Positions 4,162 through 13,300 of a stretch of 38,366 nucleotides of DNA are shown in pieces. A model generated the notes under the pieces. The model saw only the letters and a list, made by a program, of their open reading frames with translations. It was not told the DNA's origin and made no database searches. The DNA lies in NCBI GenBank assembly GCA_039794845.1, contig JAUQVK010000083.1, positions 1 through 38,366 on the forward strand. Direction: 5' to 3'. Position 1 is the stretch's first letter, and every line of letters begins with the position of its first letter. Position numbers and translations under genes: made by a program. The stretch comes from Thermostichus sp. DRC_bins_24 (GTDB lineage Bacteria > Cyanobacteriota > Cyanobacteriia > Thermostichales > Thermostichaceae).

Positions 4162-4752
4162 ATGTCTCCGCAACTGGTTCAACTGGCCACTTGGATGGCC
4201 GGACACTTTAACAACCTACAGCAGGCCATCTCAGAGCCGGTTTGGTTTGCCAATATCCATGTGTATCAATGCCCATTGCCCTGGTCGGTCTTGGATGGGT
4301 TGGGATTTTATGTGGAGCAACTCTACGATATCTACCCTGAGCAGCCCTATCGCCAGCGGGTGTTACACCTGTTTGAGTCCTCAGAGGGGATCCGCATTCA
4401 AAACTACGCGCTTACAGCGCCTGAGGTTTACAAATGTGCGGGTCGAGAGCTAAGCAAATTGGCGGGGTTAAGCGCTGCTGAGTTGGAACCCTTACCGGGA
4501 TGTATCACTCAGGTGGAATGGACGGGATCCCACTATCGCGGCCAGAGTGTGCCCGGTAAGGGGTGTATTGTGGAGCGCAAAGGCAAAACCACTTATCTCT
4601 ACAGTGAGTTTGAGATCGGCGCCGACTACTTTTACAGCCTTGACCAAGGCCGGGATCCAGAAACCGATCAAATCATCTGGGGATCCCTTTCGGGGCCATT
4701 TCAGTTTGTCAAAAAACAGGATTTCTCCGGGTATCTTCCGCAGTTGACCTGA
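4162..4752 (+). CDS. cpcT: Phycobiliprotein chromophore lyase CpcT/CpeT
   Basis: LATWMAGHFNNLQQA, PYRQRV, LPGC, PGKGCIVER, DQGRDPETDQIIWGS..GPFQF. ATG at 4162 preferred over TTG at 4144. Confidence 0.9.
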   Translation: MSPQLVQLATWMAGHFNNLQQAISEPVWFANIHVYQCPLPWSVLDGLGFYVEQLYDIYPEQPYRQRVLHLFESSEGIRIQNYALTAPEVYKCAGRELSKLAGLSAAELEPLPGCITQVEWTGSHYRGQSVPGKGCIVERKGKTTYLYSEFEIGADYFYSLDQGRDPETDQIIWGSLSGPFQFVKKQDFSGYLPQLT

Positions 4753-7369: not shown

Positions 7370-8944
7370 TTAAGGGGAAAGGGAGATCCGGATCCGAACC
7401 TGTTCCCGCCGTTCTTCAAAATCGCTGATCAACAGGGCCAGATCAATCTGCCATTCCCCCGGCAAGGCTAGGGGCACATCCTTCAATTCAAATTGCCCGG
7501 ATTCATCCGGCAAAACCCTGCGGCGCAGGGGGGGGATCCCCTGTTCCGGCAACGAAAACCCCAGGGTCAACTCTTGGGCGGGGATCCCTTCCACCTTCAC
7601 CCGAATCTGATTCTCACCCGGACGACAGGGGGAAAGTTGGATGTGCAAGCTGCCCTCCGGCCAGTTCAAACTCTCTTCACAACCGGGCTCCGCCGGGGAT
7701 CCCATGCCATGACTGGGGGGAGCCTGGGCCACCAGAAAACTCGTCAAGGCCAGCACCAGGAGCAACCCCACCAACTCCAACCGGACGATCTGACGGAGGG
7801 ACTGCTGTACCGCCCGACTGCCCTCTTGCAGCGCAGGCACCAGCCGGAACTTGTTGTGGGCACCCAACCCCACGATCATCAACACCAAGATCGCCTTGGC
7901 CCAGAGATACTGCCCATAGGGATGATCCCAATCCCAACCGCGATGGATCCCGCCCATCCCCACCCCTGCCAGGATTAGTCCCGGCACCACCCAGGTGGCG
8001 AAGTCCGAAAACCGTCGAATCACGTTGGGGGATGAAGCAGCAGACTCCCCGCTCAACAGCCGATCCAACCCCCACAACCCCCCCAACCAAAAAGCAGATC
8101 CCGCCAGATGCAACCCCAATAGGGCCATTGTTACTAGGGGATACGGGCTGGTAAGGGCATGGCCAATCGGTAAAAAGGAGCCCATCACCAGCACCGATCC
8201 GAGGCCGCTGGCCCAACCTGCCCCTCCCTCGCAGGCCCAGATCAGGATCCCCAACCCCAGCAGCCGCAGCTCTAGACCCCAGCCGTAGGGGGATGCCAAC
8301 ACCGACCGCAACTCTGCCCCGGAAAACCGGGGGTATAACTGCGCCATGTGCAAACAAAAGGCCACCACCGTCAAACTAAGTGTCAGCCAAGCCGCCGCAA
8401 AGGCCCAAGATCGGGTTCCCAGGTTCAGCTGACCCCGCAGTACCCGCCACCAGCCCAGCACCCCTACCACAAACAGGCTGCCCAAGTAGACCCCCCAGCG
8501 CACCATCAGCAGCGGCCAGTACAAGGGATCCCTGGCCTGAGCGCGGGCTGCCAGCAGCGCCTGTAAGGCTTGCGGATCTGCCTCTCCCACTTGAAACACA
8601 AACGATCCGCTCACCGGATGGGAATCGGCAGAAATGGCCCGCCAACTGACGATGTAAATCCCCTCCGGGATCCCTTCCGGTAAATCCGCCTGTGGCCCAT
8701 CGCCGGTGGCTAAAAGATTCTCCAATTCCAGAGCTTGTCCGGTGGTATCCAAAACCTGTAGCTGAGTGATTTGTACCGACTCATTAAACTGCAGCCGAAT
8801 CTGTGTCGGGGCCTCCTGTAACACCGCTCCATCCGCCGGGAAAGTAGAGAGCAAACTGGCATGAGCGAAACTGGGTTGGATCCCTGTCAGCCACAGCAAC
8901 AGACAGAGGATCCCGATTAGGATGGACTTGAAGAAATAAGGCAT
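7370..8944 (-). CDS. CopC-CopD fusion (YcnJ-like copper uptake protein) with C-terminal soluble domain
   Basis: Signal peptide, then mature N-terminal His (HASLLSTFPADG) and WRAISADSHPVSGS (CopC Cu site). CopD TMs carry GHA, LHLAGSAFWLGGL and RRFS. ATG at 8944 follows an AGGGG RBS. Confidence 0.9.
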   Translation of the reverse strand: MPYFFKSILIGILCLLLWLTGIQPSFAHASLLSTFPADGAVLQEAPTQIRLQFNESVQITQLQVLDTTGQALELENLLATGDGPQADLPEGIPEGIYIVSWRAISADSHPVSGSFVFQVGEADPQALQALLAARAQARDPLYWPLLMVRWGVYLGSLFVVGVLGWWRVLRGQLNLGTRSWAFAAAWLTLSLTVVAFCLHMAQLYPRFSGAELRSVLASPYGWGLELRLLGLGILIWACEGGAGWASGLGSVLVMGSFLPIGHALTSPYPLVTMALLGLHLAGSAFWLGGLWGLDRLLSGESAASSPNVIRRFSDFATWVVPGLILAGVGMGGIHRGWDWDHPYGQYLWAKAILVLMIVGLGAHNKFRLVPALQEGSRAVQQSLRQIVRLELVGLLLVLALTSFLVAQAPPSHGMGSPAEPGCEESLNWPEGSLHIQLSPCRPGENQIRVKVEGIPAQELTLGFSLPEQGIPPLRRRVLPDESGQFELKDVPLALPGEWQIDLALLISDFEERREQVRIRISLSP

Positions 8945-9055
8945 ACCCCTAACAACAAGTTTTGCGTGAACAAGGAAAGTATCTAATCCGTGAGATAACT
9001 GCCATGACAACCGATACCGATCTCCTCCAAACACTCTCTTAAAAAAGAAGTTCTT

Positions 9056-9311: not shown

Positions 9312-9561
9312 TTACCATGCTACCGTTTGCAAATTTTCTACCTCTTGAAAATGAGCATCGCGTGTTACCAGAATCAGACCGTGTCGTAGTGCAAGGGCTG
9401 CAATCCAGACATCATTTTCAGGCAATGGACGACCTTTTAGCCTCAACCTGTTCTTGACCTCGCCATATTGCCTAGCTGTTTCAATATCACATCCAAGTAC
9501 TACGCTGTTAGCAGCCAACTCATCAACTCTTGTTAAAGTCGAGCAAAAACCTACCACTCGT
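9312..9561 (-). pseudogene. vapC: VapC/PIN toxin pseudogene
   Basis: The C-terminal half is intact (YGEVKNRLRLKGRPLPENDVWIAALALRHGLILVTRDAHF). The N-terminal SGRFLLD lies in another frame behind ACG (9561-9559, probably a former ATG), implying an internal deletion and frameshift. Confidence 0.8.
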
Positions 9562-9730
9562 CAACATCTATCCGTTCACAATCTTGCTCGATGGCCTCGC
9601 ACATCAACTGAAGGTCATCAGAAAGAATTGAACCAGAGAAAGGCAACAATTGCTGTCCTGGTGTACCTCGAACTTCCGCTTTTACCAGCGCTCGAACGAA
9701 TTCAAGCACCTGCTTTTGCAAGGGCTGGGG
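9551..9730 (-). pseudogene. 5'-truncated cognate antitoxin gene
   Basis: Reads PQPLQKQVLEFVRALVKAEVRGTPGQQLLPFSGSILSDDLQLMCEAIEQDCERIDVDEW-stop. Its 3' end overlaps the toxin start region and its N-terminus is replaced by MITE sequence. Confidence 0.7.
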
Positions 9731-9791: not shown

Positions 9792-9921
9792 ATACTGGCA
9801 GAGGGTTATAGGGGTTGCCTTTGCCGAGGACTTCAGCCGCATAACCCTGAACTCACCTGCCACTAGTCGGGAGTCGTTCACCATTGCAAGGGTTTTGCCC
9901 AGCCTCTTCCGGTTCGGGAGC

Positions 9922-10527
9922 CTAAGGGTGGGAGTGGCCGTGGGAATGCCCATGACTGTGACCATGCCCATGGGCGGTTGGATTCTCTGTGAGCTTCAAC
10001 AGTGGGGCCGGTTCCGGCAGATCGTGGGGATCCTCACCCGGTTGGGCCACTTGGATCCAGCGGTGGATCCCTGTTTCGCACTCTTGCACCACCGGGATAG
10101 GAATGGTCTCGCCGGGCCGATCCGGCAACTTCAAAAGGATGCTGAATTCATCCACAAACTCATCTGGCAGTAGCCCACCCGACCAAATCACTTCCGCGAC
10201 GGTTTCGGTGATCATCCGCCCGTGGGATTCGTAGGGGGTTTCCAGCGGCTTTTTCACGGTCTCAATTTCCCACAGGGGGTGCACCATCGGCTTTACCGAA
10301 GTCGCCCCCTCCGGGATCTGCACCCGCAACCGGGTGGTTGGGGATCCCTCACAGCCGTGGGGAACGCGAAAGGTTAATTTGGCATGGCTACCGGCAGGTG
10401 CCTCTTTGGGGTTAACCGTGACATGGGCAAAAGCGGGGGCAAGAGCCAGAAAAGCTGAACCCAAAGTTAAGCTAAGCTTTGCTCCCAAGGACAAACGATT
10501 CTGCGACTTCAACATTAACTTCAACAT
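9922..10527 (-). CDS. YcnI (DUF1775) family copper-binding protein with His-rich tail
   Basis: Signal peptide, then HVTVNP, FRVPHGCEG, W.GG.LP and PVVQEC..W, ending HGHGHSHGHSHGHSHP. Confidence 0.9.
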   Translation of the reverse strand: MLKLMLKSQNRLSLGAKLSLTLGSAFLALAPAFAHVTVNPKEAPAGSHAKLTFRVPHGCEGSPTTRLRVQIPEGATSVKPMVHPLWEIETVKKPLETPYESHGRMITETVAEVIWSGGLLPDEFVDEFSILLKLPDRPGETIPIPVVQECETGIHRWIQVAQPGEDPHDLPEPAPLLKLTENPTAHGHGHSHGHSHGHSHP

Positions 10528-10577
10528 TATTGTTACTCCTCAAGGGTTATGGTTGCTGTGAATCTTGAACGCAGGCT

Positions 10578-10910
10578 CTAGGGATGCTGGTGATGGCCGG
10601 ATCCCTCGGATTGGATCACGCTCATGCTGTGCTGACCCCAACTGGATAGGCCCATGGAGACCAATCCTGCACTGACCAAACCCATGGATACCAACCCGAA
10701 AGACAAAGCCCCCATCGCCACTAGGCCAATGGAGACGATGCCGTGGGTGACCACCCCAACGGCCACTACCCCGTGGGCCGAGATGCCAACCGCCACCAAG
10801 CCATGAGCCCCCACCCCTACTGAGAGGATTTTTCGGGGAGTGGAATGGCCGCAATCGCCCGTTTCAGAGGGTTTTGGGGAAGCAATTTCCGACTGTGATC
10901 CCGTCAGCAT
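10578..10910 (-). CDS. Small Gly-repeat hydrophobic protein with periodic His/Met, probable metal-binding protein
   Basis: 110 aa. The ATG overlaps the petJ stop (TAATG). Six 10-residue repeats Gxxx[H/M]Gxxxx and a C-terminal HHQHP. Confidence 0.75.
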   Translation of the reverse strand: MLTGSQSEIASPKPSETGDCGHSTPRKILSVGVGAHGLVAVGISAHGVVAVGVVTHGIVSIGLVAMGALSFGLVSMGLVSAGLVSMGLSSWGQHSMSVIQSEGSGHHQHP

Positions 10911-11266
10911 TAGGCTTTACCCCAGTTGCGCTCAGCTTGTTGCAGCACATAGGCGGCAACGGACTCGATCTCTTCCGGCTTCAGTTGCTTGCCAAAGGCA
11001 GGCATGGCTCCTTTCCCCTTCGTGACTTGGTTTTGAATCAACTCCGGGGTGTCCACGTGGTATTCCTGCAAAGCGGCTAGGGTTAGGTTTTTGGCGGCGA
11101 CCAGGGAGTTTCTTCCCCCCAGATGGCAACCGATGCACTTGGCCTGAAACACCTTTGCCCCCAGGCTCAGATCAGGCTCCGCTGCAGCAGGATGGACAAA
11201 TCCCAATCCCAGCAAGCCAATCAGAAGGGCTACCCCTAGGGTTTTGAAAATCCATCTTTTGAACAT
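10910..11266 (-). CDS. petJ: Cytochrome c6
   Basis: Signal peptide ending AAA, heme motif CIGCH, QVTKGKGAMPAFG (axial Met) and VAAYVLQQAERNW. ATG at 11266; the longer ORF from 11818 is antisense to dnaG. Confidence 0.88.
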   Translation of the reverse strand: MFKRWIFKTLGVALLIGLLGLGFVHPAAAEPDLSLGAKVFQAKCIGCHLGGRNSLVAAKNLTLAALQEYHVDTPELIQNQVTKGKGAMPAFGKQLKPEEIESVAAYVLQQAERNWGKA

Positions 11267-11304
11267 AGACGCATTGCCAGCTCTAACAAGGATTCTTGAC
11301 CCCG

Positions 11305-11350
11305 ACATTGTTTCAGCCCCTGACGGCTGCGTCAAAAGACAGCCCGTCAA
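11305..11350 (-). promoter_or_regulatory. Candidate petJ promoter with two GAC-N5/6-GTC palindromes
   Basis: TGACGGCTGCGTCA (11321-11334) and GACAGCCCGTC (11338-11348). The minus strand has TTGACG-N17-AACAAT. Confidence 0.55.
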
Positions 11351-11389
11351 CTCAGCCCCGGATACCATAGGGTCAGGATCCCCAAACCG

Positions 11390-13300
11390 GTGATGAGTGG
11401 TCTGCCCCCCGAAACGATCAACCTGGTGCGCCAAAAGGCCGATCTCGTCGAGGTGGTGGCTGAAAAGGTGGTGCTGCGCAAGCAGGGCAAAAATTTTGTC
11501 GGGCTTTGCCCCTTCCACAACGACCGCAAACCCAGTTTTCAGGTCAGCCCCAGCAAACAGATCTACAAGTGTTTCTCCTGCGGTGCTGGAGGGGATGTAC
11601 TGCGCTTTGTCAGCCAGATGGAGCATCTCTCCTTTGCCGAGTCGGTTCGCAAGCTGGCTCAGCGTTACCATGTGCCCCTGCCTGAGGGATCCCCGCAGCA
11701 GCAGCAAGCCCACGAACGCAAATTCTCCCACCAAGAAAAGCTGCTGGAAATCTTGGCCATGGCTGCCGATTTTTATCAGCACGCCCTCAAGTCCCCGTTG
11801 GGATCCGCCGCCCGGCACTATTTACAAAACCGCCAACTTGGCGAAGCCACGCTGCAAAAATTTCAAATTGGCTTTGCTCCCCCCGGCTGGCAATCCCTTT
11901 ACGAGTACTTGGTCCATCAAAAACGCCAACCCGTTAAGCTTTTGGAAGAAGCAGGGTTGTTGGTGGCCCGTCAACAGGGATCCGGCCATTACGACCGTTT
12001 CCGTCACCGGATTATGTTGCCCATTTTTGATGTACAAGGTCGGGTGATTGGGTTTGCGGGGCGTGCCCTTGGGGATGAACAGCCCAAGTACCTCAATTCT
12101 CCAGAGACGGAACTGTTTAGCAAAAGTCAGGTGGTGTACGGCCTCAATTTTGCCCGGGAGGCCATTGCCAAGGCGGATCAAGCGCTAATCGTCGAAGGCT
12201 ATTTCGATGTCATGGCCCTGCATCAGGCCGGGATCCCGCAGGCGGTGGCAGCCATGGGTACGGCCCTGACTCCACAACAGGTGAAAGCCCTCCTGCGCTA
12301 TACCGAATCCAAGCGGTTAATTTTTAATTTTGATGGGGATCGGGCCGGGTTAAAAGCTGCTGAGCGGGCGATTGAGGCCCTCCAAGAGCAAGCGCGGCGC
12401 GGCGAAGTGGAGCTGCGCATTCTCACCATTCCCGAAGGCAAAGATGCCGACGAGTTTTTACGGGATCATCCGGTGGGTGAGTTTCAAACCCTGCTGGATC
12501 AAGCTCCCCTGTGGCTGGATTGGCAAATCGAACAGGTGCTATCCGGTCGGGATCTCAGTCGGGCCGGCGACTTTCAACAGGCCCATCAAGCCTTTGTACA
12601 ATTGCTGGCGGGTCTGGGTGGACAATGGCGCTCTTTGTATTTGCATAAAGTTGCAGAATTGCTCAGCCGCGGCAATGGCCGCCTCAGTCGAGATTTGGAA
12701 GAAGAATTGCGGCGGGGGGTGCGGCAATATCGCTGGGCCAAACCGGAGCAACTTTCTCCCGCCAAGGGATCCAAATTATTGCAGTCGGAATCCCATTTGC
12801 TACAGATCTTTCTGCACTTTTGTGAGTACCGTCGCGAAATTCGTGAGGCACTCTTGGAGCGAGAACTGCAATTTAGCTTTCGTCCCCATCGGGATCTGTG
12901 GCAGCGGATTTTGGAACTGGTGTACGGACAACCGGAACTGGAAACCCAGCAAGAAACCCTGCTCACGGCCTTGCGCACCATGTGCGCTCATGATGAACAG
13001 CTGAACGAACGGCTTAGCCATCTGCTGTGGTTGGATGAAAATACCCGCGTGGCCCTGATGCGCCCCCGGATTGTGGTGCGGGCGGCCATCGCCAACATGG
13101 AGCTGGAAATTCGCCAGAAACGCTACCGCTACTGGACACAACTGTGGGATCAAGCCTTTTCCGAGGGCAATACGGCCCTGGCCGCCCAATACCAAGCCAG
13201 CATTCAACGGGAATATCAAGCGATTCAAACGCTGCAGCGGGATGTGCAACTGAGCTTGGAAGACATGCTGGAGACGCCGCTGGCCGAAGACTGGATTTGA
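11390..13300 (+). CDS. dnaG: DNA primase
   Basis: Zinc finger CPFH..CFSC, DRFRHRIMLPI, PKYLNSPET and TOPRIM motifs VEGYFDV and FDGDRAG. Confidence 0.97.
   Translation: MMSGLPPETINLVRQKADLVEVVAEKVVLRKQGKNFVGLCPFHNDRKPSFQVSPSKQIYKCFSCGAGGDVLRFVSQMEHLSFAESVRKLAQRYHVPLPEGSPQQQQAHERKFSHQEKLLEILAMAADFYQHALKSPLGSAARHYLQNRQLGEATLQKFQIGFAPPGWQSLYEYLVHQKRQPVKLLEEAGLLVARQQGSGHYDRFRHRIMLPIFDVQGRVIGFAGRALGDEQPKYLNSPETELFSKSQVVYGLNFAREAIAKADQALIVEGYFDVMALHQAGIPQAVAAMGTALTPQQVKALLRYTESKRLIFNFDGDRAGLKAAERAIEALQEQARRGEVELRILTIPEGKDADEFLRDHPVGEFQTLLDQAPLWLDWQIEQVLSGRDLSRAGDFQQAHQAFVQLLAGLGGQWRSLYLHKVAELLSRGNGRLSRDLEEELRRGVRQYRWAKPEQLSPAKGSKLLQSESHLLQIFLHFCEYRREIREALLERELQFSFRPHRDLWQRILELVYGQPELETQQETLLTALRTMCAHDEQLNERLSHLLWLDENTRVALMRPRIVVRAAIANMELEIRQKRYRYWTQLWDQAFSEGNTALAAQYQASIQREYQAIQTLQRDVQLSLEDMLETPLAEDWI

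Follow-up and report, generated by a model that had tools for sequence, protein, structure and literature searches.

A histidine/methionine ladder protein encoded directly after petJ in Thermostichus: a candidate copper-handling membrane protein of cyanobacteria

Background

The plastocyanin/cytochrome c6 switch of cyanobacteria, governed by PetRP, is a classic case of cofactor economy. Without copper, PetR activates petJ and slr0601-slr0602 and represses petE, and its regulon in Synechocystis comprises only four genes, of which two have no known function (10.1101/2020.07.31.226407). The core PetR site is GACN5GTC, and the -35 region of petJ promoters carries the motif TTTGAC-N9-TTTGAC, in Synechocystis at 75 bp from the ATG; PetP lacks a sensor domain and copper is needed for the degradation of PetR (10.1101/2020.07.31.226407). 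The present work concerns a small gene placed directly after petJ in a stretch of 38,366 nucleotides from Thermostichus sp. DRC_bins_24 (assembly GCA_039794845.1, contig JAUQVK010000083.1, positions 1 to 38,366), referred to as the window. Its product, a protein of 110 residues (10578..10910, (-) strand) named here the ladder protein for its regular row of His and Met, makes a good candidate for a copper-handling membrane protein not described before, on account of this row and of its cytochrome c6 and copper-uptake gene neighbours.

The closest described systems are of three kinds. The first is Slr0601 of Synechocystis sp. PCC 6803, which is small and has predicted membrane segments; copper represses it as it does petJ, the slr0601 promoter is bound by PetR, and the linked small gene slr0602 has a coiled coil (10.1101/2020.07.31.226407). 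In proteomics from 2025, Slr0601 and cytochrome c6 fall together and Slr0601 still counts as a small protein without known function, and the accessible parts of the literature found assign it no function. The second is the copper uptake module of Bacillus subtilis, where Cu(II) is bound by YcnI and by the CopC domain of YcnJ and is exchanged between them, both proteins being needed when copper is limiting (10.1101/2025.05.23.655588). The same DUF1775 protein and CopC-CopD fusion are identified in the window, here beside the ladder protein, whereas no such protein is noted for ycnKJI in the accessible text on B. subtilis; the module in the window is furthermore joined to petJ and apparently under PetR, not YcnK.

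The third kind comprises metal relays built from rows of Met. Rings of Met in Ctr1 have been proposed for the stepwise passage of Cu(I) in the membrane. A 'methionine ladder' in CusA, again a row of Met, has been proposed for the same stepwise passage (PMC7558416). With both of them the ladder protein shares a row of Met (and His) in a membrane protein, a putative one in its case, and the likeness is a functional analogy only, with no relation in sequence or fold (the family profile matched 0 PDB sequences at E <= 1). In CusA and Ctr1, both of them helical, the ligands are set by helix geometry, whereas the ladder protein has a strict 10-residue spacing and a predicted strand-turn structure. 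Finally, the pentapeptide-repeat proteins (PF00805, A(D/N)LXX, a right-handed quadrilateral beta-helix) share the five-residue period and the abundance in cyanobacteria, whereas the repeat described here is G-[VIL]-[VIL]-[SAT]-x with an alternating tenth residue, modelled as hairpins instead of a four-sided helix. Assignment to the pentapeptide repeats was rejected: there was no PF00805 match at E <= 1, and PF01469 reached only E 0.12 and 12.7 bits against a cut-off of 26.4 bits.

The ladder and its conservation

The ladder protein belongs to PF01744, the GLTT repeat (6 copies) of Pfam, with 85.9 bits against a cut-off of 21 bits (E 1.1e-24) in three stretches, and all its close homologs carry the same domain. 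This family is defined by the Gly-x4 repeat only, has no assigned function and includes proteins without a His/Met ladder. The core of the protein (residues 32-96; 10623..10817, (-)) is formed by 13 pentads each starting with Gly, which puts a Gly at each fifth residue between 32 and 92, 13 in total. The rungs of the ladder are H36, H46, H56, M66, M76, M86 and M96, spaced by exactly 10 residues; those from H36 to M86 close every second pentad and directly precede a Gly, and M96 continues the series. Ahead of the hydrophobic core are found D19-C20-G21-H22 (10845..10856, (-)) and, just before it, R26-K27; the C-terminus is formed by the His cluster H106-H107-Q108-H109-P110 (10581..10595, (-)), where H106 is in the register of the ladder yet not conserved. 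The initial annotation, made from the letters alone, had described Gly at every fifth residue and a row H,H,H,M,M,M at 10-residue spacing. Its translation and both regularities match the ORF translation exactly, and its six rungs are all in register, one conserved rung short: M96, the Met of the motif HSM (residues 94-96), which it had recorded apart, like DCGH (19-22) and HHQHP (106-110). In shuffles of the protein, none of 100000 matched the eight in-register His/Met observed and the longest run was 6.

A word-based search identified five homologs, with the ladder in register in all five, and one of them bears the submitter name 'copper resistance protein'. A profile search free of any pattern over 1.84 billion representatives gave 1028 matches at E <= 1e-3 and 116 at E <= 1e-10; among the 150 matches listed plus the ladder protein itself, at least five consecutive His/Met rungs were identified in 72 of the 106 proteins of up to 235 residues. 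In addition, 68 related genome loci (L002-L069) were fetched with peptide patterns from a 6-row alignment of close homologs. Their products have 47-87% identity to the ladder protein, 67 of the loci are labelled cyanobacterial and the last one belongs to a metagenome-assembled genome labelled Sphingobacterium; the nearest ones (71-87%) are from hot-spring Synechococcus/Thermostichus. H56, M66, M76 and M86 were present in 68/68 loci, M96 in 67, H46 in 66 and H36 in 63. H36 and the four Met lay outside the fetching patterns; the conservation of H46 and H56 is partly by construction, because both lay within them. In a 72-row alignment M66 and M76 are invariant and M86 is at least 90% conserved. 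The flanks are also partly retained across the 68 loci: residue 26 is Arg in 31 and Lys in 12, H109 is kept in 59, and position 107 is His in 39 and Met in 18.

Two ladder subfamilies were recognized. The first has the order H-H-H-M-M-M-M, as in the window, and the second, which is larger, has (T/L)-M-M-M-M-M(-M), with Pro-Met-Gly replacing Ala-His-Gly at three successive rungs. The initial annotation had made its copper reading depend on conservation of the His/Met positions in homologs, and they are kept, the substitutions being His to Met and not to generic residues. Copper ligands would be expected to change in this way, residues in a packing position would not.

A ladder protein was defined as one of at most 240 residues in which His/Met recur at exact 10-residue spacing in at least five consecutive rungs, with Gly as the next residue after each rung. 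The protein in the window belongs to this class with its seven conserved rungs plus H106, and so do 218 of the 254 proteins of at most 240 residues gathered; since the queries contained the ladder, this share and those derived from it describe the family and not protein space. In the 218 proteins the rung is Met in 92% and His in 8% of cases, the following residue is Gly in 98%, and the 10-residue consensus is [M/H]-G-[VIL]-[IVL]-[SATN]-[IALF]-G-[VIL]-V-[SPAGT]. A C-terminal tail with at least three His is present in 175 of them, and a Cys located 5-30 residues ahead of the first rung in 164.

Within the phylum, a family match (E <= 1e-8) was identified in 69 of the 401 genomes sampled. It was present in all genomes of lineages f8 (20/20), f13 (4/4) and f20 (4/4) and in 27 of the 29 of the picocyanobacterial lineage f18, and it was not found in the genomes searched of lineages f7 (0/45) and f3 (0/25). 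Members of the marine Prochlorococcus/Synechococcus type (e.g. P0163, P0165, P0042) carry at the C-terminus a PF12518/DUF3721 module in which Cys, His and Met are conserved. Picocyanobacterial members (L073-L101, family f18) present an HCG(S/T)KPK motif ahead of the repeats, and a free-standing DUF3721 ORF was identified just upstream of the ladder gene in L074. No NCBIfam family matches the ladder protein, the ESM Atlas matches are only GLTT-named cyanobacterial clusters without structure, and no description of the ladder, PF01744 or DUF3721 was found in the literature library searched.

Gene order and regulator sites

The gene directly upstream of the ladder gene is petJ, coding for cytochrome c6 (10910..11266, (-)), identified by PF13442 (E 2.7e-15) and by NF045930 Cytc6PetJCyano (E 3.9e-36; 123.3 bits, under the 135-bit cut-off of the model). 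Its TAA stop overlaps the ATG of the ladder gene by one base (TAATG), an arrangement which is identical in the relatives L004, L005 and L008. Directly downstream, after 50 bp, is a ycnI-like gene (DUF1775; 9922..10527, (-); PF07987, E 4.6e-47), and no terminator-like site was found between petJ and ycnI; the position between these two genes is as the initial annotation had it. Further on, an ORF of 554 residues (7370..9034, (-)) codes for a CopC-CopD fusion, a putative copper importer like YcnJ (PF04234, E 1.7e-22; PF05425, E 1.7e-21; NCBIfam CopC and CopD matches are under their cut-offs), whose translation probably begins at the Met of MPYFFKS, near 8944. The neighbours of the ladder gene thus comprise the elements of a YcnI/YcnJ module, a DUF1775 domain and CopC plus CopD in one protein. 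The order petJ, ladder gene, ycnI is kept in 7 of the 68 loci, in 5 of them with copCD after it as judged by tblastn.

A PetR-type site of the form gTTGAC-N9-TTTGAC, with the core GACGGGCTGTC, is located at 11331..11350 ((-)), its centre about 77 bp upstream of the petJ ATG. A promoter-like site (11307..11335, (-)) has the -35 box TTGACG, a 17-nt spacer and the -10 box AACAAT with TG, and its -35 box falls in the second repeat of the PetR-type site; this promoter call comes from a consensus scan only, which found 3 sites in all against 1.9 expected. In motif, in overlap with the -35 box and in distance to the start, the petJ promoter of the window agrees with the petJ-type PetR sites described. 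The ladder gene itself lacks a PetR-type site and relies on transcription reading through from petJ. The genome also contains a petR-petP-like pair and a plastocyanin gene.

The same site was identified at most of the related loci. A core site lies within 300 bp upstream of the ladder gene in 37 of the 68, the background being 0.063 per 300 bp. In other cases the site is found at the head of the operon, the gene behind it being petJ in L002-L008 and L016 and a PepSY_TM gene in L010-L012, L044, L046 and L055. The contexts of these sites are nearly identical, reading (T)TGACAGNCTGTCTTTTGAC, and the extended form GAC-N5-GTC-N-TTTG occurs 65 times in 1.34 Mb, both strands counted, where about 1.3 would be expected by chance (our own estimate for 10 fixed bases). 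This extended site is placed upstream of the ladder gene or of the operon head in 52 of the 68 loci, and a perfect TTTGAC-N9-TTTGAC was present at -76 to -87 in 9/9 loci of family f8.

One locus of family f8, L104, bears on the link to Slr0601 that the initial annotation had suggested. Its gene order is protein kinase, pyridine-nucleotide disulphide oxidoreductase, the ladder homolog and a Gln/Glu-rich protein of 129 residues with only weak Pfam matches, to helical-repeat families. The homolog has 128 residues, a T-M-M-M-M-M ladder and 41% identity to the ladder protein (E 2e-21), and the sole GACN5GTC in the 12 kb of L104 is located 82 bp before its ATG, inside TTTGAC-N9-TTTGAC. The locus fits every published feature of slr0601-slr0602, so that the suggestion is consistent with the description, the identity being a putative one deduced from these features. 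No protein named for Synechocystis was present among the 120 family matches listed, nor among 45 matches to a Crocosphaera member. Slr0601 and the ladder protein are both small putative membrane proteins tied to PetR-type sites. They differ in context, since the ladder gene of the window shares an operon with petJ, ycnI and copCD and lacks a partner resembling slr0602, and in the first three rungs, which are His in the window and Thr/Met in the L104-type ladder.

Extra petJ-type PetR sites were identified before other genes of the related loci: before an ABC permease gene (BPD_transp_1) in L019 (position 4854), L037 (4966), L066 (4957), L067 (4957) and L069 (4984), before a TonB receptor gene in L050 (1560), and before petJ in L010 and L055, besides those before PepSY_TM genes; one site of L010 is at position 4449. 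The PetR regulon may thus exceed the four genes of Synechocystis, perhaps including uptake machinery.

Proposed role and structure

The sequences show the ladder, its conservation, the gene order and a PetR-type site that recurs across cyanobacteria; from this material we infer expression on copper starvation, membrane location, copper binding and any transfer to YcnI/CopCD. The explanation that best covers it, to which we give about an even chance, is a membrane protein induced by copper starvation that binds copper through its ladder and tail and acts with YcnI and CopC-CopD in copper acquisition. The protein would be made together with cytochrome c6 on copper depletion, under the BlaI/CopY-type regulator PetR, and would be a small integral-membrane protein, or at least a strongly self-associating hydrophobic one. 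Its repeat core would serve as a scaffold in which each 10-residue unit is predicted to combine a short strand with a tight turn, x-[His/Met]-Gly, and seven imidazole or thioether ligands would thereby be held in a regular array that binds copper, with the Lys/Arg-flanked N-terminus on one side and the His-rich tail (His/Met-rich elsewhere) on the other. In this position it could capture copper, or hand it on, for the Cu(II)-binding YcnI and the CopC-CopD importer during copper limitation, by analogy with the methionine relays that CusA and Ctr1 contain. The conservation of the row and the recurrence of the regulator site across cyanobacteria strengthen the copper reading.

The membrane location is suggested by 65 uncharged residues preceded by Arg/Lys and followed by an acidic His-rich tail. 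Following the positive-inside rule, the Arg/Lys ahead of the core would place the N-terminus inside. For the fold, an AlphaFold2 model from the 72-row alignment has strands at 38-43, 49-54, 58-64, 68-74, 78-84 and 88-90, connected by turns of 3-5 residues that hold the His/Met-Gly pairs (x-[H/M]-G). If this meander is correct, the ligands would alternate, with H36, H56, M76 and M96 at one edge and H46, M66 and M86 at the other. The initial annotation had instead proposed a beta-solenoid stacking all ligands in one column; the predicted hairpins would give two rows and lend it no support, though at a predicted confidence (pLDDT) of 61, low enough to leave a solenoid or a helical membrane bundle some probability. 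A helical membrane bundle of three spans for the 65 hydrophobic residues was ranked below the strand-turn model because conservation follows a period of exactly 5/10 instead of 3.6, the hydrophobic core is not broken by any polar loop, and the larger subfamily has Pro-Met-Gly turns at three successive rungs.

A bolder version, offered tentatively as a minority possibility, takes the protein and its relatives, probably including Slr0601, as a new class of minimal copper conduit made of a 60-residue membrane strand-turn repeat. The turns would put alternating His/Met ligands at both faces, and the relay would take copper from extracytoplasmic binders such as YcnI/CopC, or in other lineages from a PepSY_TM reductase, across or along the membrane; the order of His first and Met later could reflect a hand-over from Cu(II) to Cu(I). 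If true, the conduit would be a metal relay that uses a beta-type repeat in place of helices, and would give the switch between plastocyanin and cytochrome c6 in cyanobacteria a conserved third arm.

This is a widespread cyanobacterial family with a conserved row of copper-type ligands and a petJ-type PetR site in most of the lineages examined, and the two together give the unknown arm of the regulon a testable job, the handling of scarce copper. The PetR regulon would thereby be tied to the YcnI/YcnJ import module, PepSY_TM proteins and TonB receptors, and, if the ladder binds copper, an unusual metal relay would be built from a short repeat.

Several observations weigh against a copper role under PetR. 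The structural model is of low confidence: AlphaFold2 with the 6-row alignment gave an unusable pLDDT of 48.7, and the 72-row alignment gave 61, with the blocks at 41-80 at 71-75. The GACN5GTC core is not enriched in the window, with 4 found against 6.6 expected, and for that reason the weight of the site at petJ comes only from its position and extended form. In this genome the 250 bp ahead of the plastocyanin gene (L071) contain no core, the only one being about 460 bp upstream, so that PetR control in the Thermostichus genome is deduced from petJ alone. Among the related loci, the extended site was not found in 16 of the 68 (one of which has just 41 bp of upstream sequence), and no core site was present within 400 bp in 19 picocyanobacterial loci (f18); the same count was 0/3 for f20. 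In many loci the two ORFs to either side of the ladder gene include no copper gene, and C20 is not conserved across the 68 close loci. Lastly, other proteins of the PF01744 type, such as those fused to a helix-turn-helix (HTH) domain, have the same Gly period with rungs of Arg, Lys or His followed by hydrophobic ones; since such proteins without His/Met exist, the fold itself does not imply metal binding.

Alternative explanations

This last point leads to the alternative that survives best, namely a structural or pore-forming hydrophobic repeat with no metal role, where Gly-x4 builds a membrane or self-assembling sheet and Met or His is merely tolerated at the turns. The Gly period recurs in HTH-fused proteins and in eukaryotic low-complexity proteins with Arg/Lys/Gln or hydrophobic rungs, PF01744 is without known function in the literature searched, and the nearest structures are generic. 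VIA-align gave antiparallel meander sheets, phage spike tips and barrel segments with a best Z of 7.0, equal to the background of the tool, and Foldseek with the model found no match in the PDB at E <= 0.001. A homo-dimer prediction (residues 24-110, two copies, 72-row alignment) scored 0.00, below the mark and without controls, and speaks neither for nor against a dimer. Mere tolerance is however difficult to reconcile with rungs that are Met or His throughout the 218 ladder proteins while the adjacent positions vary freely, and it leaves unexplained the His-rich tails, the DUF3721 fusion and the copper and metal contexts under a copper-regulator site. A purely structural repeat is hence unlikely, and the ladder is better seen as a specialisation, and not a property, of the GLTT-type repeat as far as the compared sequences go.

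In the second alternative the protein serves cytochrome c6 and not copper, by passing haem, by docking or maturation, or by adapting photosynthetic complexes. The translational coupling to petJ would suit such a function, and Slr0602 is reported in a commentary to interact with photosynthetic proteins (PMC7896320). The gene neighbourhoods speak on both sides. A Pfam scan covered 218 of the 245 flanking ORFs, up to two per side, of 61 loci (L009-L069), and the 27 flanking ORFs of L002-L008 were judged by tblastn. The most frequent neighbour outside the clade of the window was PepSY_TM (12/61 loci), and a petJ-like cytochrome was a neighbour in 11/68. PepSY_TM proteins are haem-containing reductases, and His and Met are haem axial ligands. 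Against this, the ladder of the larger subfamily is all-Met and bis-Met haem ligation is rare; picocyanobacterial members are located beside Fur-family regulators (in 5 of the 7 such loci examined) and not beside petJ; and the ycnI, copCD and DUF411 neighbours, the last in L020, L027 and L079, indicate copper. A service to cytochrome c6 is accordingly quite unlikely. The association of homologs with copper genes, as the initial annotation had anticipated it, was identified in several independent arrangements, in copper or metal neighbours such as petJ, ycnI, copCD, petR-petP-like genes, DUF411, PepSY_TM, TonB receptor and Fur-family genes, and in the PetR-type site of 52 loci, and it fails for the many loci without a copper gene in the two flanking ORFs. 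Other neighbours have no evident copper link: Tab2-like plus ABC permease in 14 loci, DUF92 in 6 and NadA in 5. The picocyanobacterial ladder genes are usually also placed beside a radical-SAM/DUF3641 gene.

The third alternative considers the protein as a copper-sensing accessory of the PetP protease that would bind copper arriving in the membrane and trigger the degradation of PetR by PetP, closing a feedback loop. A BlaI/CopY-type repressor (Penicillinase_R) was identified as neighbour in 5/61 loci (L012, L036, L048, L051, L054), with an M48 protease in 2 of them, so that the ladder gene adjoins petR-petP-like genes there, and the lack of a sensor domain in PetP together with the need of copper for PetR degradation would leave room for such an accessory. 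The published evidence, in its accessible part, argues on the contrary that no cyanobacterial accessory is needed, and the ladder gene is not beside petRP in 63 of the 68 loci; a sensing role appears distinctly improbable.

Finally, that the ORF is no real gene and arises by chance in GC-rich periodic DNA, for which the overlapping ORFs at 10540..10854 ((-), 104 residues) and 10654..10806 ((+), 50 residues) might speak, is hardly credible and already contradicted by the conservation of the protein, its frame and its ladder across the 68 loci, by the number of profile matches and by the stop/start overlap with petJ repeated in three relatives. These two ORFs look themselves like by-products of the GC-rich periodic DNA.

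Other features of the locus

Rfam and tRNA scans of the whole window gave no matches, and a search for RNA runs covering 9900-11400 listed none. The YcnI-like protein has a predicted mature N-terminus beginning with His (AFA|HVTV) and a weak match to PDB 3esm (E 3.3e-4). Its C-terminal tail (9922-9970, (-)) reads HGHGHSHGHSHGHSHP, a His-Gly/Ser repeat that could be a further metal-binding arm.

Two small ORFs of 56 and 81 residues are located between ycnI and copCD (9312..9721, (-)). The second contains the C-terminal part of a PIN domain (PF01850, E 2.6e-10, profile positions 57-118 of 120). Since ycnI and copCD overlap without intervening ORFs in the close relatives L004, L005 and L007, the pair looks like an insertion, possibly a truncated toxin-antitoxin pair, outside the copper module, and it may leave copCD uncoupled from the petJ operon. 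Ahead of copCD is a promoter-like site (9222-9194).

The petJ promoter belongs to a divergent intergenic region of about 120 bp (11267-11390) shared with an ORF at 11390-13300 ((+)), which from its translation would be a DNA primase (dnaG).

Among the proteins gathered, P0044, P0054, P0059, P0060, P0066 and P0068 are longer, with 18-20 Gly-x4 pentads and an N-terminal region that is HTH-like (XRE-type) by eye; their first rungs are Arg, Lys or His and the later ones hydrophobic. They appear to represent a separate, uncharacterised use of the Gly-x4 repeat.

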